Virus record (IMG/VR): IMGVR_UViG_2671180724_000008
Source of the DNA: a virus
Lineage: Duplodnaviria > Heunggongvirae > Uroviricota > Caudoviricetes
DNA length: 64,000 nt
Strand: one strand, 5' to 3'
Below the pieces are notes generated by a model. The model saw only the letters and a program-made list of their open reading frames with translations. It ran no database searches and had not been told where the DNA came from. Below, in pieces: positions 1,522 to 22,000 of this stretch (its first letter is position 1; each line of letters starts with the position of its first letter). Both the position numbers and the translations under genes were made by a program.

Positions 1522-2289
1522 TTATGCCGCGCTAACACTATGTTCAGTCCTAACCACCCCAACCTTCACAAAAGGGCTACCGTAGCTTGGTGGCTTCTTG
1601 ATTAATTTGCCTACATACAGTTTTCTAATATGCTCATCGGCTATTCTGCCAACAAATTCATAACGTTTTGTGTCGGGGCCAAGAGCTATATCCCTTGTAA
1701 AGTACTGCTGAGAACCGGCTTTGACCCAGCATTCAATCCGATAAACTTCCATTATCAGCCCACCATATGTAGCGTAGGCATATTTGAGATTCTCGTCTCT
1801 TGGAACCTTTGCCCATACGCCACGCGTAGCTTCATATAATGCCAGAGCGGACATTCCTGACTTGTAGGTGCTGTTTAGCAGGAAGGCAAGACCGGCGTGC
1901 TCAGGAGCAATTTCAGTTTCCTCTTGCAGCACTAAGTGATGGTAGGCGTCCAGTGATATTCTGCCCATCATGGAACCACTTCCTCGTACCTTATTCGTAA
2001 GCTCTCCGACCCCCATAAGGTCGATGCATGTCGCCTCAACAAGTTTGGCTGTGGTTTCATCCATACCATGACGAAGTATATCTATGCCTAATTTTTTATT
2101 AGCCAAAAGTTCTTTGATCCGCATGGATTTGGGAGAGTCATCGGGATACTTGATGTGATCGAGACAACGAGTCGATTTGCCTTTTCCTATGTAAAACGGT
2201 CTTTTCATCTTGTCTTCTGTATCATAGAGACAGTAAACATAGTATTTAGCCTTATCCAATGATCTCGCGTATACCGATAAATCGTCCAT
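1522..2289 (-). CDS. GIY-YIG nuclease-domain protein, possible free-standing homing endonuclease
   Basis: N-terminal YVYCLYD...PFYIGKGK...R...H matches the GIY-YIG signature; encoded opposite to the surrounding genes. Confidence 0.55.
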   Translation of the reverse strand: MDDLSVYARSLDKAKYYVYCLYDTEDKMKRPFYIGKGKSTRCLDHIKYPDDSPKSMRIKELLANKKLGIDILRHGMDETTAKLVEATCIDLMGVGELTNKVRGSGSMMGRISLDAYHHLVLQEETEIAPEHAGLAFLLNSTYKSGMSALALYEATRGVWAKVPRDENLKYAYATYGGLIMEVYRIECWVKAGSQQYFTRDIALGPDTKRYEFVGRIADEHIRKLYVGKLIKKPPSYGSPFVKVGVVRTEHSVSAA

Positions 2290-2400
2290 TATTGCATCTC
2301 TTAGCTACTGACTAATGCGTTCTATTTTACACATAAGTTTTTAATCAATTTAACAGGCTCAAAGTGTAGAGCTTCTGGGCGTCTAAGACGACAAGTTATG

Positions 2401-2458
2401 CCTGCTTCCGTATATATAAATAATAAGTAACTTATTAAATATATACAGAAGCAGGTCT
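2401..2458. repeat. Long hairpin element (CCTGCTTCCGTA, AT-rich loop about 35 nt, TACAGAAGCAGG) with T-run; similar copy at 49095-49153
   Basis: 12-bp stems in two related copies; loop of this copy contains the ATAAGTA..CTTAT palindrome. Confidence 0.5.
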
Positions 2459-2562
2459 TTTAAAAGACACCACCAGAACAACTCCCTTCCGTTTCCACTT
2501 CCAAAAACTGCCACCAGTCGCTATCATCCGCCCATTGTGATAAGTAAGTAACTACCTACCAG

Positions 2563-3312
2563 GTGAGCCACATGAGCCAAATCTTTTTCGACACCATCGA
2601 CAACGACCAGTACGACTTCATGACAGAGTGGAATACCGCTGTTATGGATAAGTGGGTTGCTGAAAACATTGGTTTGTCGCGTTGCAAAGACGAGGCTGAA
2701 CTCTTCGATACGAAGTGGTTTGATTACCGCGACATGCATCCTCTTATGGCCACCTGTCTGTTTACAGAGGCATACAAACGTCAGTACTCAAATATCATGC
2801 TGACGCACGGTCGAGAACACTTTGAAACAGCTCCGTTCACCACCGGGTTAAAACGCCTGCCTTATCAGGAGTTGTCGACTGCCAATAAAACGTCGCTATG
2901 GAAAGCACGCCAGTTTGCTGACCGCTATTGCTGCTCATACGACTACTTTATTTCCACCGTTCTTTCCGCAGCTGCACGACGACTGTGGGACAAGCTGCCG
3001 CGTCCGCAGCATTTGTGGCAGCCAGAACTGATTGAGATATTCGAAGATAAATTAGCCAGACGCGCAACAACCCGTCTGGATGACTCTCTGGTTAGCTTTA
3101 AGCATATGGGAGACATGCAGTTCAACCCGATTCAGGAAAGCTATTTTGAGTGGATTCTGGAGCGTTTACGCGCCATCCCCCGCAGCAAGCGCATACGCGC
3201 AATTTTCTCCGCTATCTGGCTAATGGAAATCGTTCCAGAGCGCCTTATTTCCGCCCACTTTCCAGAAGAACTGGAAGAAGCACGGCGGTTTATTGATCCC
3301 CTATCTAATTAA
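2563..3312 (+). CDS. Hypothetical protein (directly upstream of the helicase)
   Basis: 249-aa ORF; no motif recognised. Confidence 0.5.
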   Translation: MSHMSQIFFDTIDNDQYDFMTEWNTAVMDKWVAENIGLSRCKDEAELFDTKWFDYRDMHPLMATCLFTEAYKRQYSNIMLTHGREHFETAPFTTGLKRLPYQELSTANKTSLWKARQFADRYCCSYDYFISTVLSAAARRLWDKLPRPQHLWQPELIEIFEDKLARRATTRLDDSLVSFKHMGDMQFNPIQESYFEWILERLRAIPRSKRIRAIFSAIWLMEIVPERLISAHFPEELEEARRFIDPLSN

Positions 3313-3355
3313 CTAATACTAGAAAACAATTTGTTTAAAAAACAAAGGAAAGCAC

Positions 3356-4696
3356 ATGACCGAACTTTGCCATACAGGACGCGGGCTGTCCGAAGAGTTT
3401 GATGAAGATTTCCAGAACAGACTGACGGCATATTTTTGTCGTGATCACGAGTTTCTTACTCGTGCGGGAGATCTGGTTGTGCCTAGCCAATTTGCCAATG
3501 CGGCCAATGCCATATTGGTTAATATGGTTTCGGGCTATTACCGTATGTACAAGAGCGCGCCCTCTTCATCTGCAATTCTGGATATGCTTAAGCGTGCGAA
3601 ACGCGATAAGACTATCCGTGAGGAACTATTCGCCGATGTTGTTGCTGCGTTTAAGCGCATCCTTGCAGAAAAATTGTCCGATACCTCGTACATGGTTGAC
3701 CAGGTATCAACCTTCGCAAAAAGCGTAGCGTTTGATGATGCTCTGATTAAGGCTGCTGAACTGAAAGAGAAGGGCGACTTTCAGGGGGCGATGGCAATCA
3801 TGGCCAAGGTTCAGCAGATTGGATCGAATGAAGCGACCGGAATCTATGACTACTACACCTCCGCAAGTGAGCGATTGAAAGCGCGTGAATATGAGGCTTC
3901 AGAGGAGTATGTACCAAACAGTATTACAACTGGACTCCCTCTTCTCGATAGGTTGCTGTACCAAAAAGGCTGGGCAAAGCGCGAAATGGTGCTCTTCATG
4001 GGGTTCGCTAAATCCGGTAAATCGACCGCAATGGGTGAGTTTTCCATAAACGCAACGCTTGCCGGCTACAATGTTCTGTATCTCTCGCTGGAGGTTCACA
4101 CCAACATTTTGTCCGACCGCTTTGATGCAAGATTGTCGGAGACGGAAATGTCCAAGCTGGTGGAACGGCGCGATGAAGTTCATCGTAAGTTGGCAGAGTT
4201 GGGAGCCACGAAGGGGATTGGTAGTTTGTGGGTTGTTGAGCGTCCGTCAGGAAGTATGTCACCGGCCGATCTGGACCGTATGCTTAACAGTATGAAAGCC
4301 AATGGCATGGTGCCTGACATGGTTGTTGTCGACTACGCAGATTTGATGCGTGCCAGTTATGACCTTCGTGATGATCGCGCCAATATTCGTAGTATCTACA
4401 CCGATTTACGTGCTCTTTATGACAAACATAACGTTGCTGGGATCACGGCATCGCAGACAAACCGTGAAGGTGGCGCGTCAGAAGTTGCCACAATGATGCA
4501 CGCTGCCGACAACATCGAAAAAGTACGTATTGCTGACCTGGTAATAACGATCAACAAAACCGAAGAAGAAGAAGCGAAAGGAGAGGCTCGTCTCTACTTT
4601 GCTGGTTCGCGTAACCAGCAGGGAGGGATCAGCATTCGCGTTAAACAAAACCTCGAACAAATGCGCTTCATTGAGCGAATCTTAGACGTTACCTAA
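3356..4696 (+). CDS. DnaB-family replicative DNA helicase
   Basis: RecA-fold Walker A GFAKSGKST and Walker B-like MVVVDYADLM; conserved AAAGGAAAgCACATG initiation context. Confidence 0.8.
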   Translation: MTELCHTGRGLSEEFDEDFQNRLTAYFCRDHEFLTRAGDLVVPSQFANAANAILVNMVSGYYRMYKSAPSSSAILDMLKRAKRDKTIREELFADVVAAFKRILAEKLSDTSYMVDQVSTFAKSVAFDDALIKAAELKEKGDFQGAMAIMAKVQQIGSNEATGIYDYYTSASERLKAREYEASEEYVPNSITTGLPLLDRLLYQKGWAKREMVLFMGFAKSGKSTAMGEFSINATLAGYNVLYLSLEVHTNILSDRFDARLSETEMSKLVERRDEVHRKLAELGATKGIGSLWVVERPSGSMSPADLDRMLNSMKANGMVPDMVVVDYADLMRASYDLRDDRANIRSIYTDLRALYDKHNVAGITASQTNREGGASEVATMMHAADNIEKVRIADLVITINKTEEEEAKGEARLYFAGSRNQQGGISIRVKQNLEQMRFIERILDVT

Positions 4697-9198: not shown

Positions 9199-9485
9199 GC
9201 AATTTAACTTCTTGGGAATGGTGGTTGGCCACCTATTTCTTAGCGGCCGGAGTCGCATTCGCCTTTTACGTAGGTCAGTTAGTCGTAAAACTGTTGCTGA
9301 TTAAATTTGCTAGTCATAAACGTATCGATGATGGTCTGTGGCGTCTTGGCACCCTGGTGGAAACTCGCTACGGGCAACTTAAGGAGAACGAAACCATTAC
9401 TATCCAAGCGAAACGATTCACTGCCACCATCACAAGAACACCTAGTCGTAGAGTGGCATTGATCAAAAAAGTCACAACCGAATAA
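9195..9485 (+). CDS. Small membrane protein
   Basis: N-terminal TM helix WWLATYFLAAGVAFAFYVGQLVV. Confidence 0.45.
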   Translation: MSNLTSWEWWLATYFLAAGVAFAFYVGQLVVKLLLIKFASHKRIDDGLWRLGTLVETRYGQLKENETITIQAKRFTATITRTPSRRVALIKKVTTE

Positions 9486-9494
9486 AAACATATT

Positions 9495-9516
9495 GATAAG
9501 TATTTACTTACTTATC
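9495..9516. promoter_or_regulatory. Copy of palindrome family GATAAGTAtttacttaCTTATC followed by TTTT
   Basis: Perfect 8-bp AT-rich arms. Confidence 0.4.
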
Positions 9517-9875
9517 TTTTGTGTATAAGATGACTTTGTTTTCGTTGAGACGCGACTGTTTGAACTTAAATACAAGTGCAAACGAAGAAGTCTATCTGGC
9601 AGTAGCCTAATAAGCCAAACACCAGCGAGGTCAGTTTCCAGCCTCGTTACCGAAATGGGACACACTGAGCGAGTGTGATTGCAGAACGCAGGAGGGAACA
9701 TTCATGTTCCCTCCGATGAAGTAACAGAATGGGCGGTTGGTATATTTTCAACTCCATATGACTCCCGGATTCTTAGCCACTGACCGCCCATCCTGTTACG
9801 TCATTTTGTTCAATTATGTCGTTTATACTGGGTTAAAAAGCGGCGACGTAGCCCGGCTGGTATGGTTAGCCAGCA

Positions 9876-9997
9876 CACAACGTTGAGGCCATTACATTTT
9901 TATCAATTCTAAGGTTCTATTCACAGAGATACCGGCGAGCGTTGATATGTAACATGTTGGGCAAACATTCAATCGGAGTAGTGGCCTCAACGTTGTG
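9876..9997. repeat. Stem-enclosed element: 16-bp inverted repeat CACAACGTTGAGGCCA / TGGCCTCAACGTTGTG around about 90 nt
   Basis: Perfect long-range inverted repeat; stem related to elements at 10519 and 11268. Confidence 0.55.
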
Positions 9998-10263
9998 AAG
10001 ACGGGATTGTTGTGTAGGTTTAACCACTGTTGCCATTGGTGCCTGTTTTCACAACAAATGATTCCATACATCACATTGTATAAATTACAAAGTAGGTGCT
10101 GTCCTCAGAAACATCATCTACTTAAAGATTTTGCCTTCTACTATTGAGCGAAGTCGAAAGCGTCTGGCACTAACGAAAAGTGCAAGTAGCGGTGCGTTTC
10201 CTGGCAGAAACTAAACCGTCGCGATTGGCACTGTTGAGTAATAAATACTGGCAGTGCTGAATT

Positions 10264-10339
10264 GATGGTGTAGCTCAGCGGTAGAGCAGTTGGCTGTTAA
10301 CCAACTGGTCGGTGGTTCGAATCCACCCACCATCGCCAA
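10264..10339 (+). tRNA. tRNA-Asn (anticodon GUU)
   Basis: Cloverleaf by hand: acceptor GATGGTG/CACCATC, anticodon stem GTTGG/CCAAC with loop CTGTTAA, T-arm GGTGG-TTCGAAT-CCACC, 3' CCA. Confidence 0.8.
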
Positions 10340-10343
10340 TTTA

Positions 10344-10430
10344 GGGGAGTTAGTCCGTAGAGGTAGCGGTGTAGACTGTAAATCTACTGTCATTGCGACT
10401 CGGGTGGTTCGACTCCATCACTCCCCACCA
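10344..10430 (+). tRNA. tRNA-Tyr (anticodon GUA), long variable arm
   Basis: Acceptor GGGGAGT/ACTCCCC, anticodon stem GTAGA/TCTAC with loop CTGTAAA, T-loop TTCGACT, 3' CCA. Confidence 0.7.
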
Positions 10431-10434
10431 AATT

Positions 10435-10510
10435 GCCGGTTTAGCTCAGTTGGTAGAGCGCCTGCCTTGTAAGCAGGATGTCAGCGGTTCGTGTCCGTTA
10501 ACCGGCACCA
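10435..10510 (+). tRNA. tRNA-Thr (anticodon UGU)
   Basis: Acceptor GCCGGTT/AACCGGC, D-arm GCTC-AGTTGGTA-GAGC, anticodon loop CTTGTAA, T-arm AGCGG-TTCGTGT-CCGTT, 3' CCA. Confidence 0.8.
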
Positions 10511-10518
10511 ACATAATA

Positions 10519-10598
10519 TTGAGAACATTGGCGTAACGGGGTCATATCCCAATCTATGAATAAATGTTACGTTGCCGCGTGACAACCAGTGTTCTCAA
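10519..10598. repeat. Stem-enclosed element (TTGAGAACATTGG / CCAGTGTTCTCAA) with nested CGTAAC/GTTACG stem
   Basis: 13-bp inverted repeat; same CACAnnGTTGAG stem family in inverted orientation. Confidence 0.5.
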
Positions 10599-11178
10599 CA
10601 TTGTGGTGAATGCACAGGCTGATGTGCCGCAACTACAGTAGTGCGCGCTTTGCGGGGCTTGCTACAACCCTGTGTCGGAGATCAGCGCCGACCATCACAA
10701 TTTGGCTCTCTTGCAACAGCATAACGCTGAAATATGTCCAACCTGGTGCGGCCTGTTCACCCGCCGTTAGCTCCACGAAACGGAGCGCACAACAGATAAG
10801 AGAACTTCCCATATGGGGCTTGGCTTAAATGCATCGAGTTCTCTTATCGCTGTGTCACAGACAAATTTCCGACAGCCCTGTTTATCATCGGACGCAACCT
10901 AAAAGGTCGAGGCAAAGCCAGGTAATAGCGGAGGGAGTGACACAGCACACAACAGGTAAGAGCATTTGTAGAGTTCGACTCTCTACCGTGGGCTTTTTCC
11001 CGCGATGCGAGCCATAAATGCTCTTTCCGTTGTGGTGGATTCGCAGACTGATGCGATAGCTTTCTTGGATGTTAGGGAAATGCGGCCGCAAATCTTCCCT
11101 TTCGCGAGCGGTGATCGTCCGTAGTCCTAATTGGCTGCACCGTATGCCGGAGATTCAGTACCGGCCACCACAACGGCC

Positions 11179-11265
11179 GGAGAGTAGGGAGCATGGTGCT
11201 CAAGCGGTCTTGAAAACCGTCCCATTGTGCAAACGATGATGGTTCGATTCCATTACTCTCCGCCA
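11179..11265 (+). tRNA. tRNA-Ser (anticodon UGA), long variable arm
   Basis: Acceptor GGAGAGT/ACTCTCC, anticodon stem-loop GGTCTTGAAAACC as in enterobacterial tRNA-Ser(UGA), T-loop TTCGATT, 3' GCCA; D-arm atypical. Confidence 0.65.
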
Positions 11266-11267
11266 GA

Positions 11268-11345
11268 CACAGCGTTGAGCGGTTTGGCCTTTTAATCAAC
11301 TCGATTAAGACTCCGCTAACATAAACCAGACCGCTCAACGCTGTG
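11268..11345. repeat. Stem-enclosed element directly 3' of tRNA-Ser (CACAGCGTTGAGCGGT / ACCGCTCAACGCTGTG)
   Basis: 16-bp perfect inverted repeat around about 45 nt. Confidence 0.55.
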
Positions 11346-11420
11346 ATAGACAATTACGGCAGACGTTCTTAACCATAGCTTGCTAACATCCTAGCAACAC
11401 TTTTTTTCAGCGCAAAATTC

Positions 11421-11443
11421 AAAGGGGCTTCGGCCCCTTTTTT
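11421..11443. terminator. Bidirectional rho-independent terminator (GGGGC-TTCG-GCCCC flanked by A-run and T-run)
   Basis: GC stem with tetraloop; T-run on both strands; just past the stop of the minus-strand gene 11461-12795. Confidence 0.8.
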
Positions 11444-11460
11444 GAAAGCAATGGGCAAGT

Positions 11461-12795
11461 TCATGCCAAATTATCCAGATTTCTTTTCTTTTTTTCAATT
11501 ATATTTCTCGCGCCAGAAAAAATTTTACTCAAAATAATTGATTTGCTTGCTCTATTATTAAGATGTAACAACGCGCTATAAAATACATAGTTATCTATTT
11601 TACTATTTAAAGTATTCCCAAGCTTCCCGTTATATGTGCTATTAATAGTATTAAAATATACATGTTCAGGACCTATATTACAAATACCCCTATCAACTCG
11701 CTTTAAATAATGTTTAACTAAAGAAATAGCATCTTCCTTATCATTAATAACATAAAGTCCTGAGCGTTTACCTAGCTTGCTGTCCGAGAATAATTTATAA
11801 CCAACAAGTTCATTTAACGTATTATCCACTTTTGTCAACTCTTTGTTGGCAATCTCCAAATAATACTCAATCTCTTTCTCCATATTACTTATTAAAGAGT
11901 TAAATTCTGCTCGTAACAAATCACCACCAGGTGATTTATAACTCCATAAAATTGAATTGGTAATACGTACTACGTCAGATACTTCTGGTTTCTCTGAATA
12001 GTTTTTGTATCTAGTGCAAATAATGCTGTGCTTTATATATTCTCTAACTAATGATCGATAATCCCTTTCGAAAAGGTTTTTGACATCTAGTCTTCCATTG
12101 CTTGTTGTTATTAAGGTGGTGTTTAAAACTGGGTCGCCTTCAAAAAAATTATATTTATTTAGTAATCGTTTTAGCTTGTGTGAATTATGTGATGTTTCGC
12201 CATAATAATTTATCCCAAAAATAGCAATTATTAGCATAACATCAGGAGTGATGAAATGTCGTAATTGCTCGGCATAAACTTTTTTATCTTCGATTTTCGA
12301 AGATGGAGAGTAAAAACCTTTGTCTATATATTCTAATATTGAAACAATATTACTAACATAACGTATAAAAACTTGATTCATTACAACGGAATCATAAACC
12401 TGATGCAAATAATCTACTCTCAAGTTGTTTTTTATTTTTTCCCCTGTACTAGATGATAACTCTTCTTTTACCTGCCCAAGTAGCTTTTCGTGGTGCTCCA
12501 GCAATGTTTTAAACCATTGTTCAAATGATGATTTTCTTGCCTCAGTTAATGAATCTGATGTTATCTGGACAGCTTTCATAGCTGCTTTCGCACTTTTCTT
12601 TGCTTCATAAGCGTTCCATGCTGAAGCACAAAAAGCTGCCGCCGTGATGCAACTGGTAAAAATAGAAATCCTATCTGCAACATTCAAGCTCCAGAACCAA
12701 TCAGACGATGAAATCAAAACCACAGATATTACGGGAACAATGAAAATCAAAACAGGCATGTATGTACTCGCTCTAATAGTTATTAGTCGAGGCAA
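11461..12795 (-). CDS. AT-rich membrane-anchored protein of unknown function; candidate superinfection-exclusion, abortive-infection or defence gene
   Basis: Gene visibly much more AT-rich than neighbours; two N-terminal TM helices then about 380-aa soluble region; own AT-rich promoter region and terminator; opposite strand. Confidence 0.6.
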   Translation of the reverse strand: MPRLITIRASTYMPVLIFIVPVISVVLISSSDWFWSLNVADRISIFTSCITAAAFCASAWNAYEAKKSAKAAMKAVQITSDSLTEARKSSFEQWFKTLLEHHEKLLGQVKEELSSSTGEKIKNNLRVDYLHQVYDSVVMNQVFIRYVSNIVSILEYIDKGFYSPSSKIEDKKVYAEQLRHFITPDVMLIIAIFGINYYGETSHNSHKLKRLLNKYNFFEGDPVLNTTLITTSNGRLDVKNLFERDYRSLVREYIKHSIICTRYKNYSEKPEVSDVVRITNSILWSYKSPGGDLLRAEFNSLISNMEKEIEYYLEIANKELTKVDNTLNELVGYKLFSDSKLGKRSGLYVINDKEDAISLVKHYLKRVDRGICNIGPEHVYFNTINSTYNGKLGNTLNSKIDNYVFYSALLHLNNRASKSIILSKIFSGARNIIEKKKRNLDNLA

Positions 12796-19060: not shown

Positions 19061-22000
19061 ATGAAGGCACTGATGGTTCGAACTGACTTCTCACTTGGGG
19101 AGTCGGCTTTAAAAGCGGAAAACGCGGTGAAGATTGCCAGAGAAGCTGGCTACACCGCTGTAATTTCAGCAGATAGCATGAATATTGCGAGTGTTATTCC
19201 ACTACAACGTGCCGCTGGTGACGACATGGCGGTTATTTGTGGTGTGAAACTAAATATCGTTGATGATCCCACATACGAGTACCGGGCTAAACTTGCTAAA
19301 GAGTCTAAGGGATGTATGGAATCATTAGAGCGAGGACGTAACTACTCGTTTACCGCTCTAATTAAAAATGAGCAAGGATATCGCGACATCTGCGAACTAA
19401 TGACGGTGGCCAACACACGAGAACAGTTCTACTTTGTACCGCGTCTCTCGCTCGAACAGTTGGTTTCTACATATGCCAAAGGCAACATCATCCTGCTCAC
19501 TTCCGACATCGGTAGCGTGTTCCAACGCAACGATTTTGCAAAAATCATAAGCACACTGATTACAGCGGGTGGAAAAGACAACTTCTATAGTGTGGTTTAT
19601 CCGCACCCTACCCCATTCTACGACCAGATTAACGTCCGGGCGATGAAAGTCGCCAGCGCATTGAAAATAGAGCCAGTGGCGTTCTATCCCGCTTATTACG
19701 AATCGATCGACGATGCAGACATTAAAGACATTGCGCACATGGTTACGAACAACATCAAAATCGACCAGCCGCATCGTCTGCGTATCCCCCACCAGCGAGA
19801 TAACGCCGTCAATGGTCGCCGCCATCTCCTTGAGGCTCTTAAAGCCTTCTCCGTTCGCATGGATGTGCCGGTAACAGCTGCAATGGCCTCAACAACGCAG
19901 GATACCATTATCGATGCCTGCACATGGCGCTGGCATGAATTGCCGCCAGCACTGCCAAAGATGGCAGACGACGAGCCTGCAACGCTTATGAAACTGGCTG
20001 TTGCAGGGCTGCGTAAACGTCTTACCACAAAAGAGTTTGGCTACACACCACCTGCTTCTGAGAACAGGGTTTATGTTGAGCGGCTAAAGTACGAAATGGA
20101 CACGCTGACTCGCCTGGGATTTTGTGGTTACTTCCTGATGGTACGCGATCTGATGAATCACAGCCGTGAAACTGGCATTCCTGTCGGGCCTGGTCGTGGT
20201 TCCTCCGCTGGATCTCTGGTGGCATGGTGCATAGGCATAACCAACGTCGACCCAATCCGTCACGGTCTTCTGTTTGAACGTTTCATCAACCCTGAGCGTC
20301 TCGACTTGCCGGATGCGGATTTGGACTTCAGCCAGGCACGTCGCCATGAAGTGATCGAGTATTTGAATGAACGCTACGGCGAAGATTACGTTGCGGGTAT
20401 TCCGAACTTCACATATCTGGGCGCAGCCTCTGCACTACGTGACACCGCTCGTATTTATGGTGTGGAGTCCGCAGATATGGCGGTATCAAAAGAACTGAAG
20501 AACGTCGAGGATGATAGCCTTCCATTGGAAGAACTGCGCGAACAACTGGCAAGTCTCGACAAATACGCAACAAAATATCCTGATGCATTCAATGCAGCCT
20601 GCAAGTTACAAAGCCTTATGCGTGGCTTTGGTAGACATGCGGCAGGGATGATCGTAGCAGGTGTTCCTCTGACAGAACGTACACCGGTTGAGCGCCGTGG
20701 TGACGCGCGTTGTATCGCATTTGACAAGCGTTACTGCGAGGCTATGGGCCTAATTAAGCTGGACGTGCTTGGCCTGGCAACTCTCGATTTGCTCGATAGT
20801 GCAAAACGCTACATAAAAGAGAACACAGGTGAAGATATCAATCTTGATGCCATTTCTCTTGAGGATCGCAAGGTGCTGGATGGTTTTGCTGCTGGGTACA
20901 CTCAAGGTGTTTTCCAGCTTGAATCAGGCCCAATGCGCAAGCTGCTTAAAGATTTAGGTGGTGGAATTGAGCCAATGAGCTTTAAAACGGTTGTTGCTAC
21001 GACTGCGCTCTTCCGGCCGGGGCCAATTCAGTCAGGCATGTTGGATGATTATGTTTCTGTCGCCAAAGGCTTTATGACGCCGGAATCATTACACCCCGTT
21101 CTTGATGAACTTACCGCAGAAACAAATGGCGTGATTCTCTATCAGGAACAGACGATGAACGCGACTCGATTGCTTGCTGGCTTCACAATGGCTGAAGCTG
21201 ACGGTGTTCGTAAAGCGATCGGCAAAAAAGACATGGAAAAAATGAAGAGCATGGGCGAGAAGTTCATCGTTCAGGCTCAAGCTGGCTGGATAGACGTTGA
21301 GCTGGAAGATGGCACTACACAGCGCATTCACCGTGCGGAACATTTTAAATGCGAAGACGGAACTCTGAAAACTGTCGAAGAGGCACTTGAGTACGGCGCA
21401 AAACTACCTATAAACGCAGTACGCGTTACAGCGTCACATCCAGGGCTATCAGAGATGAAAGCGAAGGAGATCTGGACCGCATTCGAAAAGAATGGTGCCT
21501 ACCAGTTCAACAAATCACACTCTGTTGCTTACTCCTTAATCAGTTATCAATCTATGTGGTTGAAAACTCATTATCCCGCAGAGTTTTTCGCTGCTGCTCT
21601 CACTATTCTTGGCGAAGATAAACACCAGGGGCTGGTTAAAGATGCGCTGACCTATGGTATTCGCGTATTGCCACCAGACGTTAACGTGTCATCTAACCGA
21701 ATCGAGATCCGCACGCTTGAAGATGGCAGCCAGGTGCTGTATGCGCCCTTCTCTGCTGTGAAAGGTTGTTCTGAGAATGGCTGCCAGGCCATCATGAGAG
21801 CGCGAGAAAAAGTTGGCGGCAAATTCGAGTCACTGGCGCAATTCGAAGAAGCTGTCGAGAAACGTGCCTGTAATAGTCGAGTGCGCGAATCACTGCAAAA
21901 AGTAGGGGCGTTTGCATCCATCGAGCCAGGTAGTCTGCCAGCAACTGATCCAGAGCGTCTCCGCGACCAAGCTGAATTGATGGGAAACCTTGTCATAGAC

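Follow-up and report, generated by a model that had tools for sequence, protein, structure and literature searches.

A modular array of structured RNAs, with tRNA-shaped and tmRNA-like families, in the tRNA region of an SSU5-like phage-plasmid

The tRNA region, its neighbors and its relatives

In order to characterize an RNA-rich region in a tailed virus (Caudoviricetes; IMG/VR record IMGVR_UViG_2671180724_000008), we analyzed 64,000 nucleotides (nt) of its DNA, referred to here as the window, with emphasis on positions 9490-11450. The window is an SSU5-like phage-plasmid of Escherichia coli. Besides four transfer RNA (tRNA) genes, the region contains ten or more long helices that each enclose 45-150 nt and belong to a series of RNA modules: long hairpins (family A), a tRNA-shaped RNA with a hypervariable insert (family B), and a module, M, that by its sequence resembles the message part of a transfer-messenger RNA (tmRNA). 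B and M are present in hundreds of temperate phages, in tRNA clusters and in the late-operon leader that follows the Q gene.

All four tRNA genes lie on the + strand. ARAGORN and Rfam place tRNA-Asn(GUU) at 10264-10338, tRNA-Tyr(GUA) at 10344-10430 and tRNA-Thr(UGU) at 10435-10510, separated by 5 and 4 nt, and ARAGORN places tRNA-Ser(UGA) at 11179-11265. An earlier note on this DNA had counted the same number of tRNAs and had called the region poor in open reading frames (ORFs). The latter point is also borne out: we found no credible ORF in 9490-11450 and a Pfam search of the ORFs there gave no matches. A candidate ORF at 10610-10828 was rejected because it has no Pfam match and overlaps conserved RNA helices. 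The earlier proposal that the remaining elements might be unrecognized canonical or near-canonical tRNAs did not hold, as ARAGORN finds no tRNA beyond the four at its default and 80% thresholds and the Rfam tRNA model (RF00005) matches none of the elements at E <= 10. tmRNA calls by ARAGORN needed a threshold as low as 70% and came amid obvious noise. At its gathering thresholds Rfam 15 returned only tRNAs; relaxing the cut-off to E <= 10 added nothing of relevance except two sub-threshold tmRNA alignments, and none of its small RNA (sRNA) families matches the region.

A promoter-like region was read from the sequence at 9495-9531 (+), with a -35 element TTTACT (9503-9508), a 17-nt spacer and a -10 element TAAGAT (9526-9531). 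It scores 8/12, below the threshold of a simple promoter scan, and it is conserved in SSU5-like relatives; it is presumably the weak but conserved promoter of the RNA array. A perfect 8-bp (base-pair) inverted repeat, GATAAGTA-N6-TACTTATC (9495-9516), overlaps the predicted -35 element, is partly conserved in relatives and looks like a repressor operator, comparable to the C1 operator at Pban of phage P1. At the other end, we read an intrinsic terminator, GGGGC-UUCG-GCCCC followed by U6 (11424-11443, +), as the end of the unit; it is not listed by a simple terminator scan, and a local Rfam match to a terminator segment covers 11419-11442. The region is preceded by a DNA ligase gene and small ORFs; on its other side are an integrase gene and a convergent ORF whose AbiC-like match is weak. 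The convergent ORF (11461-12795, - strand, 444 amino acids) matches PF16872, a putative abortive-infection domain, with E = 3e-4, just under the cut-off; the phage-plasmid Cyrano carries other genes at this position.

Positions 9400-11500 of the window are 97-98% identical, piecewise, to the E. coli phage-plasmids CMS-2020a and Cyrano, and the first 490 bases of this interval are about 81% identical to Salmonella phage SSU5. The same 350-base leader was found in 773 plasmids, including Yersinia pestis pMT-type and Salmonella pHCM2-type replicons. Positions 10405-10802 are about 90% identical to phages P1, P7 and D6, and the backbones of the window phage and P1 are unrelated. In P1 the homologous stretch sits within the C1-controlled ban operon. 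There, the annotation places plp ('putative lipoprotein') and upl on the strand that does not encode the tRNAs, at 1973-2542 of the P1 locus that we extracted, which corresponds to about 10509-10800 of the window. Both lie wholly over A and B modules, have no Pfam match and overlap conserved RNA helices; they are probably not real genes.

Cyrano, CMS-2020a and the window differ by whole modules, and the breakpoints lie in a common junction sequence. In Cyrano tRNA-Thr and tRNA-Ser are joined, 8 nt apart; one CMS-2020a isolate lacks 10530-11018 and has a different hairpin of the same type in its place; another isolate lacks 10802-10943. Because the breakpoints fall in shared junction sequence, these differences fit homologous recombination between cassettes and not transposition. 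Judged from such comparisons, the modules are conserved families that are swapped as cassettes among temperate phages.

Long helices and the family A hairpins

The earlier note had reported at least three long inverted repeats and several further long-range stems. These elements are real and lie at, or within a few bases of, the places it gave, with arms that are 83-95% complementary. The arms at 9876-9895 and 9978-9997 have 20 nt (95% complementary), those at 10509-10531 and 10586-10608 have 23 nt (83%), and those at 11268-11287 and 11326-11345 have 20 nt (95%). The further stems resolve into 9716-9804 (22-nt arms at 9716-9737 and 9783-9804, 91% complementary), 10795-10848 (10795-10806 with 10837-10848), 10849-10946 (10849-10858 with 10937-10946), 10955-11028 (10955-10967 with 11016-11028) and 11027-11176 (11027-11038 with 11165-11176). 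One more stem, 9992-10005 with 10042-10055, had been missed. When the + strand RNA was folded and compared with dinucleotide shuffles (n = 200), six elements reached z = -4.0 to -9.5 with 0/200 shuffles as good (9870-10003, 10505-10612, 10784-10860, 10944-11036, 11264-11349 and 9712-9808); the values were z = -3.0 for 10845-10950 and z = -2.4 for 11027-11176.

Family A, as defined by its sequence, consists of long hairpins with the base CACAAC...GUUGUG, and the GTTGAG stems of the earlier note belong to it. The hairpin usually found 5' of B reads CACAAC(A)GGUAAGAGC...GCUCUUUCCGUUGUG; covarying variants include GAUAAGA/UCUUAUC, GUUGAGAAC/GUUCUCAAC, GGGAAGAAC/GUUCUUCCC and others. The inner stems are unique to each hairpin, each covarying with its own partner strand, and the interiors vary; some of them hold canonical T-arm-like hairpins, such as GAG-UUCGACU-CUC at 10971-10988 and GGGUUCGAAUCCC in P1. 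The 3' strand of A continues into the 5' acceptor strand of B, with UGUG common to both. The stem core CACA(A/G)(C/T)GTTGAG that had been proposed for all three elements is found only in part: the arm at 9876 reads CACAACGTTGAG and that at 11268 reads CACAGCGTTGAG, and in the other element the core is absent from the left arm (ACATAATATTGAG) and present in the right arm (CTCAACATTGTG), the P1, P7 and D6 orthologues having CTACAACGTTGAG. The GCUCUUU of A right arms resembles the rrn boxA; as it covaries with its partner (GCUCUUAUC, GUUCUCAAC, GCUCUCAGC), it is a helix strand and we rejected the boxA assignment.

All members of family A in the window are on the + strand. E1 (9876-9997; CACAACGUUGAGGCCAUUAC ... 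GUAGUGGCCUCAACGUUGUG; z = -6.2) follows directly on a short hairpin, GCUGG-(9 nt)-CCAGC (9855-9874, +), which in one relative has the compensatory pair GCUGA/UCAGC, and further upstream lies the 9716-9804 hairpin (+, z = -5.9). The next module (9992-10055, +), closed by GUUGUGAAGACGGG / CCUGUUUUCACAAC, has its GUUGUG strand in common with E1; its orthologues in SSU5 and pJN2-26 have different inner stems. E2 (10509-10608; z = -5.0) starts 2 nt past the CCA of tRNA-Thr. Downstream of the first B copy, a spacer module (10700-10787, +) with the hairpin GCUCC-ACGAAAC-GGAGC (10770-10786) is 77-92% conserved in P1 and in Cronobacter and Klebsiella phages, and may represent a further module family. 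It is followed by E3 (10788-10854; CACAACAGAUAAGAGAACU ... AGUUCUCUUAUCGCUGUG; z = -4.0), by a module closed by GCUGUGUCAC / GUGACACAGC (10849-10946, +; z = -3.0) that is absent from one relative (L002), and by E4 (10948-11034; CACAACAGGUAAGAGCAUUU ... AAAUGCUCUUUCCGUUGUG; z = -5.1), whose interior contains the T-arm-like hairpin GUAGAG-UUCGACU-CUCUAC. Hairpins of the E4 family lie 5' of B elements in many phages and their stems covary. E6 (11268-11345; z = -9.5) starts 2 nt past the CCA of tRNA-Ser.

The stems are conserved in orthologues from SSU5, Y. pestis pMT-type and Klebsiella plasmids and P1/P7/D6 through compensatory and G·U changes, so that the refuting outcome named in the earlier note, a lack of such conservation in related genomes, does not apply. 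In nine orthologues of E1, from E. coli, Salmonella, Yersinia and Klebsiella replicons, 20/20 pairs are kept, 4 of them with compensatory changes; the one-sided changes all give G·U on the + strand, where the other strand would have a C·A mismatch. The 9716-9804 hairpin is kept in SSU5-like relatives, again with one-sided changes to G·U on the + strand. Klebsiella phage-plasmids keep E6 downstream of tRNA-Ser, where its interior is different, and the stem has one U·G pair that forms on the + strand only. Orthologues of E2 in P1, P7 and D6 are about 90% identical. If G·U pairs are counted, E1 and E6 are each paired at 20/20 positions in the fold. Since one-sided changes become G·U on the + strand, which is irrelevant to duplex DNA, the long inverted repeats are closing helices of a + strand RNA and not DNA sites.

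This evidence bears on the possibility that the repeats act in DNA, as termini of miniature mobile elements or as binding or recombination sites of a DNA enzyme, with the modules as cargo. Whole modules are indeed present in some close relatives and missing from others; copies of the junction sequence alternate in orientation and hence offer a substrate for homologous recombination; the core CAACGTTG forms a palindrome; and one B copy adjoins an HNH endonuclease gene. However, one-sided stem changes are almost all G·U on one strand, which matters only to RNA, and every hairpin has an inner stem of its own whose two strands covary. The copies are restricted to transcribed leaders and tRNA clusters, where they share the orientation of the tRNAs, and we saw neither target-site duplications nor identical dispersed copies. 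Inverted repeats are present, as in a miniature inverted-repeat transposable element, but the copies are confined to tRNA clusters and pR' leaders and their interiors are unrelated, so the mini mobile elements considered in the earlier note are not supported. An integron attC site was likewise rejected: the order here, GTTGAGC ... GCTCAAC (GTTRRRY...RYYYAAC), is the reverse of the RYYYAAC ... GTTRRRY of attC on either strand. We therefore regard a DNA-level explanation as very unlikely.

The helix bases are also visible as a local enrichment. CACAAC occurs 5 times and GTTGTG 3 times in 9490-11450, where 0.60 and 0.32 are expected from the rest of the window (8- to 9-fold; Poisson P = 4e-4 and 4e-3). 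The two hexamers mark the module junctions, with hairpins running from CACAAC to GTTGTG and the intervening modules from GTTGTG to CACAAC. CACAACA is the consensus target of the R1 seed of the host sRNA GcvB. With the hexamer about 8-fold enriched in the region, one could imagine that the repeated CACAAC(A) mimics a GcvB target site and sponges this sRNA, as does the prophage anti-sRNA AgvB. The AgvB gene lies downstream of pR' in enterohemorrhagic E. coli prophages (PMC4104026). In every module, however, the motif is paired with GUUGUG in a stable helix, the copies in Pseudomonas phage PAJU2 lack it, and RNAs of the AgvB type have 51-60 nt, a single-stranded seed and their own terminator. A GcvB sponge is thus the most improbable of the explanations that we considered, to the point of being nearly dismissible.

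The tRNA-shaped family B and module M

Two elements of the window, at 10601-10699 (copy 1) and 11030-11172 (copy 2), both on the + strand, belong to family B. Each has the closing stem UGUGGUG/CACCACA, a 5' hairpin with the loop GRCUGA and a 3' hairpin with the loop AGAUCAGYR. Its parts are arranged as in a tRNA: the acceptor stem (7 bp) is followed by 2-3 nt, a D stem of 4 bp with a loop of 8 nt, an insert, and a 5-bp T stem that stacks directly on the acceptor 3' strand. Where a tRNA has its anticodon arm, B has a hypervariable insert of 12-150 nt. The D loop is complementary to the T loop (GCUGA to UCAGC in copy 1, ACUGA to UCAGU in copy 2), giving a contact of 5 Watson-Crick pairs. This combination of stacked acceptor and T stems, D stem and loop contact is found in B only, and its three helices covary. 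The earlier note had considered tRNA-like small RNAs among its explanations; for these two elements that description is supported (covariance model E = 2e-15 and 6e-14).

We collected B copies from at least 120 IMG/VR contigs with a pattern taken from the 5' part. Among the matches listed there are 101 distinct copies with a matching 3' part, 65-215 nt long, and their centers are unrelated, with 56 different ones at < 80% identity in about 100 copies. A minimal copy (L124) has a 12-nt linker and no insert. In an alignment of 50 sequences, 98% of the cells at paired positions are paired and 8 pairs show compensatory changes, with 0/500 shuffles as good; in the T stem, which lies outside the search pattern, 4/5 pairs covary. 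For 115 model matches the values rise to 99% and 12/16 pairs. The loop-loop contact also covaries, a D-loop G being found with a T-loop C (72) or U (10) and an A with U (6) or C (1). A covariance model, R1, built without close homologs of the window copies, recovers 10601-10699 with 68 bits (E = 2.3e-15) and 11030-11172 with 62.5 bits (E = 5.7e-14). It also finds copies independent of the pattern, in which compensatory changes extend through the entire acceptor stem (AUUGGAUG/CAUCCAAU, and, in Pseudomonas phage PAJU2, GAGUG/CACUC), as well as a second B subfamily in which the loops differ and are still complementary. A weak match to the model at 19675-19794 of the window (- strand; 13.7 bits, E = 0.14), which lacks a T arm, is probably due to chance.

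B occurs in 255 phage records (Escherichia, Klebsiella, Pseudomonas, Salmonella, Burkholderia, Erwinia, Aeromonas and others) and in genomes of Enterobacterales, Pseudomonas, Moraxellaceae, Marinobacterium, Massilia and Rugamonas. In a genome-wide scan with the B pattern, 78/120 of the matches listed have no B 3' half, and by our own estimate from pattern length and database size about 70 chance matches are expected. The 5' signature is present in phages of Gamma- and Betaproteobacteria and in 628/5,426 complete E. coli genomes, where it is never annotated. In E. coli prophages, HK620 and Pseudomonas phage PAJU2, B directly follows the Q antiterminator gene and pR'. A tRNA lies within 500 nt of 17/97 B copies, always on the same strand, among the matches listed; these are every IMG/VR locus with any tRNA. 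SSU5, pJN2-26 and the Y. pestis plasmid have no B, so the window lineage acquired it, probably from a P1-like phage.

Several observations on individual copies were made along the way. An encoded CCA is enriched after B (within 5 nt in 33/101 copies among the matches listed), but its position is not fixed and we rejected it as a feature of the family; the enrichment is probably due to a conserved downstream CCAAAUC module. A hammerhead ribozyme was rejected as well: the B D arm has CUGAUG, but the core is CUGAUGC, with neither a stem II nor GAAA after it. A recurrent sequence, CCAAAUCACGCCUCAGGACCGUGAU..., with the hairpin AUCACG...CGUGAU stands immediately 3' of B in many lambdoid leaders (L036, L062 and L063 among them) and may be a further module family. 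In the virulent Klebsiella phage Magnus (Ackermannviridae; L133), a B copy (R1, 71 bits) lies within a stretch (1880-4430) annotated as successive hypothetical proteins of 30-70 amino acids, just upstream of tRNA-Met and tRNA-Arg; this stretch may really be an RNA module array. In Klebsiella phage BUCT_49532 (L007, 1354-2146), the B insert is 75% identical to that of window copy 2, and the element, set among tail genes, comes immediately after an HNH endonuclease gene and is far from any tRNA or Q gene.

The strict scaffold and the variable insert raise the possibility that B is a tRNA-shaped decoy, sponge or scaffold acting in trans, in which the insert gives specificity and processing is incidental. 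Possible targets are host tRNA-directed defense nucleases, tRNA-modifying enzymes or other RNAs, and this explanation overlaps the trans-acting half of the reading that we prefer below. It is consistent with a hypervariable insert (56 unrelated centers in about 100 copies among the matches listed), as in an arms race, held in a strictly conserved scaffold that shares its location with phage tRNA genes. Phage tRNAs are known to counter tRNA-targeting defenses (bioRxiv 10.1101/2023.03.15.532788), and the segment downstream of pR' is a known site of phage sRNA genes (PMC4104026). Against it, the insert cannot be essential, since copy L124 has only its 12-nt linker; moreover, we identified no anticodon-loop mimic in B and no protein gene consistently linked to it. 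We consider this a minority explanation, unlikely as the whole account though the strongest of the alternatives.

It could also be argued that the region is a functionless graveyard of tRNA pseudogenes and fragments. Some A interiors do hold canonical T-arm-like hairpins, the D arm of B has the same size as that of a tRNA, and the homologous region of P1 is dispensable in the laboratory. Yet compensatory changes preserve B in phages of both Gamma- and Betaproteobacteria, and a Watson-Crick contact has co-evolved between its D and T loops. In the 20-bp stems there is no more than one mismatch or G·U (95% complementarity), which is unexpected under decay, and module M shows a codon-like substitution pattern. 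Decay of former tRNA genes appears quite improbable.

Module M (9536-9700, +), which the earlier note did not mention, carries a frame without a start codon at 9578-9607, GCA AAC GAA GAA GUC UAU CUG GCA GUA GCC, followed by UAA UAA (9608-9613) and by conserved hairpins, possibly a pseudoknot. The frame starts forty nt into a conserved leader, whose own start is the predicted transcription start. Its translation, ANEEVYLAVA, compares with ANDENYALAA of E. coli SsrA: a GCN resume codon, a stop and a degradation tag ending in hydrophobic residues and A, as in a tmRNA tag frame. Rfam aligns the tag region weakly with beta_tmRNA (14.4 bits against a gathering threshold of 84) and tmRNA_permuted (14.9 against 47). 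The frame is kept in SSU5, pJN2-26, a Y. pestis plasmid and P1, relatives having the tags ANEDTYLAVA, ANDNQYLAVA and ANEDAYLAVA and P1 having ANDDLMMVAA. In the LAVA group 14/14 distinct DNAs have exactly 10 codons; the entropies at codon positions 1, 2 and 3 are 0.22, 0.30 and 0.58 bits, and changes are synonymous (GUC/GUG, UAU/UAC, GAA/GAG, GCA/GCC and stop UAA/UAG). There is no conserved in-frame start codon, and an indel of 0-2 nt lies just 5' of the frame. A pseudoknot-like pairing 3' of the frame covaries (CCGA/UCGG, CCAA/UUGG, CCAG/CUGG).

No tRNA-like domain (acceptor stem with G3·U70, T arm and CCA) was found for M, as ARAGORN calls no tmRNA in the window or in the P1, P7, D6 and SSU5-like loci. 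A hidden domain nearby was sought with BLAST against E. coli ssrA and rejected: the only matches, of 7-10 nt (GGGCGGTTGG, TTCAACTCC, GACGGGATT), are out of order and are not conserved in relatives. On this sequence evidence M would be a tmRNA-like message that is under codon-like constraint and has no tRNA-like domain. A search with the M tag pattern gave at least 120 viral loci. Among the matches listed (120 loci), 43 are genuine tmRNAs according to ARAGORN and 60 are in-frame M copies in loci without a tmRNA call, from P1-like, SSU5-like and lambdoid phages; a B start lies within 2.5 kb downstream of 24 of these 60 copies and upstream of 0. The order in HK620 is pR' - A - M - A - B - annotated terminator. 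The lambdoid form of M is present, unannotated, in 136/5,426 E. coli genomes. SSU5, pJN2-26 and the Y. pestis plasmid carry M without B. In P1, a dicF-like region with a terminator-like hairpin is annotated directly 5' of M (1292-1393 of the extracted locus); no Rfam match to DicF was found in the window.

The arrangement suggests that M, an A hairpin and B might together constitute a non-canonical phage tmRNA, with B as the tRNA-like part and M as the message, that re-programs the tag put on products of stalled ribosomes. Such a view would account for the tmRNA-like 10-codon frame of M with its codon-like constraint and missing start codon, for the covarying pseudoknot-like element after it, for the position of B downstream of M and never upstream among the matches listed, and for the A-M-A-B order between pR' and terminator in HK620. 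However, B has neither G3·U70 nor a canonical T loop, and the CCA that frequently follows it varies in position. M lies 5' of the entire tRNA-like part, a topology known for no tmRNA, and RNase P would be expected to sever the two; SSU5, pJN2-26 and the Y. pestis plasmid, moreover, have M alone. Minimum free energy folds of four lambdoid leaders showed no convincing pairing between M flanks and B inserts. A single composite tmRNA is improbable in our estimation.

A proposed processing pathway and its relation to known systems

We lean, by a modest margin of confidence, towards an explanation in which the region is one + strand noncoding transcription unit, comprising the four tRNAs and the RNA modules, that is cut by ribonucleases (RNases) P and III into tRNAs and stable RNAs mimicking tRNA and tmRNA. 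A single unit is suggested by the absence of ORFs with a Pfam match, the co-oriented tRNAs, the conserved promoter-like region 5', the terminator 3' and the position of the P1 homolog within the ban operon. The transcript would be about 1.9 kb long, from roughly 9538 to 11443, and would hold the four tRNA genes and at least ten independently folding modules. RNase P recognizes the stacked acceptor and T helices and the elbow of tRNA, and hairpins, among them the precursors of 4.5S RNA and of the P1/P7 C4 RNA, are also cut by it; here its predicted sites are the 5' ends of each tRNA and each B element. Helices of about 20 bp are cleaved by E. coli RNase III, with 17-22 bp as a standard substrate length, and this enzyme would act inside the A helices, which have 17-22 bp; E1 and E6 (20 nt, 95% complementary) and the 9716-9804 hairpin (22 nt, 91%) have the length of about 20 bp or more of an RNase III site. 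Because only 2 nt separate E2 and E6 from a tRNA CCA, exonucleases alone could not finish these 3' ends and an endonuclease must cut. The A hairpins may thus serve as punctuation that frees blocked tRNA 3' ends, insulates adjacent folds and releases B and M as stable small RNAs, and the earlier suggestion that long hairpins are processing signals is plausible. Once released, B and M would probably mimic tRNA and tmRNA in trans and so engage the machinery of translation or of tRNA surveillance; this target is suggested by the strict B scaffold, its variable insert, the tRNA-gene niche and a tmRNA-derived partner. On the whole, what the earlier note observed is confirmed and its interpretation is partly supported.

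Several points weigh against this pathway. Both ends of the transcript and every cleavage in it are predictions. Folding energy does not set the element at 10596-10704 apart from shuffled sequence (z = -1.0), the G·U asymmetry of E2 favors neither strand, and the conservation of the B 5' part is overstated, being in part an artifact of the search pattern. A and B share a GUUGUG strand and cannot both be fully formed at the same time. RNase III has little sequence specificity, so the conserved sequence at the helix bases (CACAAC, GGUAAGAGC/GCUCUUUCC) is not explained by it. Finally, knock-down of the homologous P1 region (trnT, plp, upl) by CRISPR interference had no effect on plaque formation (PMC10695390), and any function would therefore be accessory or conditional.

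A more specific version of trans action is that M and the tRNA-shaped B form a phage RNA system which hijacks or re-programs ribosome rescue or tRNA surveillance, for example through phage-specified tagging on stalled ribosomes. It would be carried by temperate phages of Enterobacteria and relatives (P1, HK620, SSU5, a Y. pestis pMT-type plasmid and many E. coli prophages) and expressed from the late-operon leader or from tRNA operons. This proposal is speculative and we think it rather unlikely to be correct as stated.

B and M are absent from Rfam 15, from genome annotation and from the literature searchable by us, which includes few papers from subscription journals. Structured RNAs in phage tRNA clusters and mimicry of tRNA and tmRNA are of a known kind, while these families and the A-M-A-B arrangement appear to be new. 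Annotations usually leave phage tRNA clusters and the leader from Q to the lysis genes blank or give them tiny hypothetical ORFs; here they contain conserved structured RNAs, and recognition of B and M corrects the annotation of many genomes. Both occur in the laboratory model phages P1 and HK620 and are thus directly testable. If B and M act on translation or on tRNA-directed defense, they would constitute an RNA-only layer of phage-host conflict; even as processing modules only, they would explain the movement of tRNA cassettes between unrelated phages.

Among the closest known arrangements is that of T4 rnaC and rnaD (species 1 and 2 RNAs), small structured RNAs within a phage tRNA cluster that are co-oriented and co-transcribed with the tRNAs. 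RnaC has a tRNA-type T arm, and the role of both RNAs is unassigned, as it is here. In contrast, they have no CACAAC/GUUGUG closing helices and no kissing D and T loops, and R1 gave 0 matches in the T4 tRNA region, so that there is no similarity to rnaC/rnaD in sequence or covariance model. Bacterial Y RNAs (YrlA-like) gave no Rfam match in the region at E <= 10, and the ends of B lie at the acceptor side, which we take to be the opposite of the YrlA topology. The prophage sRNAs AgvB, AsxR, StxS and Pas share the niche downstream of pR' in lambdoid prophages (PMC4104026; PMC7547250; 10.64898/2026.05.13.724894), but they are short and of the Hfq type, with single-stranded seeds and their own terminators.

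The likeness of M to tmRNA (SsrA) lies in its tag frame from GCA, 10 codons of the form AN(D/E)(D/E/N)x(Y/F)LAVA and then a stop, in an A-rich UAAAU before the resume codon and in a hairpin or pseudoknot 3' of the frame. Mycobacteriophage DS6A is a precedent for half a tmRNA in a phage: it has a reduced tmRNA consisting of the tRNA-like domain only (PMC4131195). M is the opposite half, a message without acceptor stem, T arm, G3·U70 or CCA. The tmRNA censuses that we consulted report forms with only the tRNA-like domain and no message-only form, and in the plasmid and phage genome sets that they searched ssrA was found only in mycobacteriophages and Bacillus phage G.

With respect to processing, long helices that flank or separate functional RNAs are endonuclease entry sites in rRNA operons and in the early transcript of phage T7. 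The A hairpins differ from these in that the sequence of their base is conserved and that they enclose variable cargo, and their cleavage is predicted. RNAs linked to tRNAs and freed by tRNA-processing enzymes include the tRNA-microRNA units of gammaherpesvirus 68, the 4.5S and P1/P7 C4 precursors and engineered 'tRNA scaffolds'. These are analogies rather than homologs, and none has the B sequence or a kissing-loop elbow. In the scaffolds the tRNA fold sets the ends of an attached RNA and stabilizes it, and by analogy B resembles a natural scaffold with its insert at the position of the anticodon arm.

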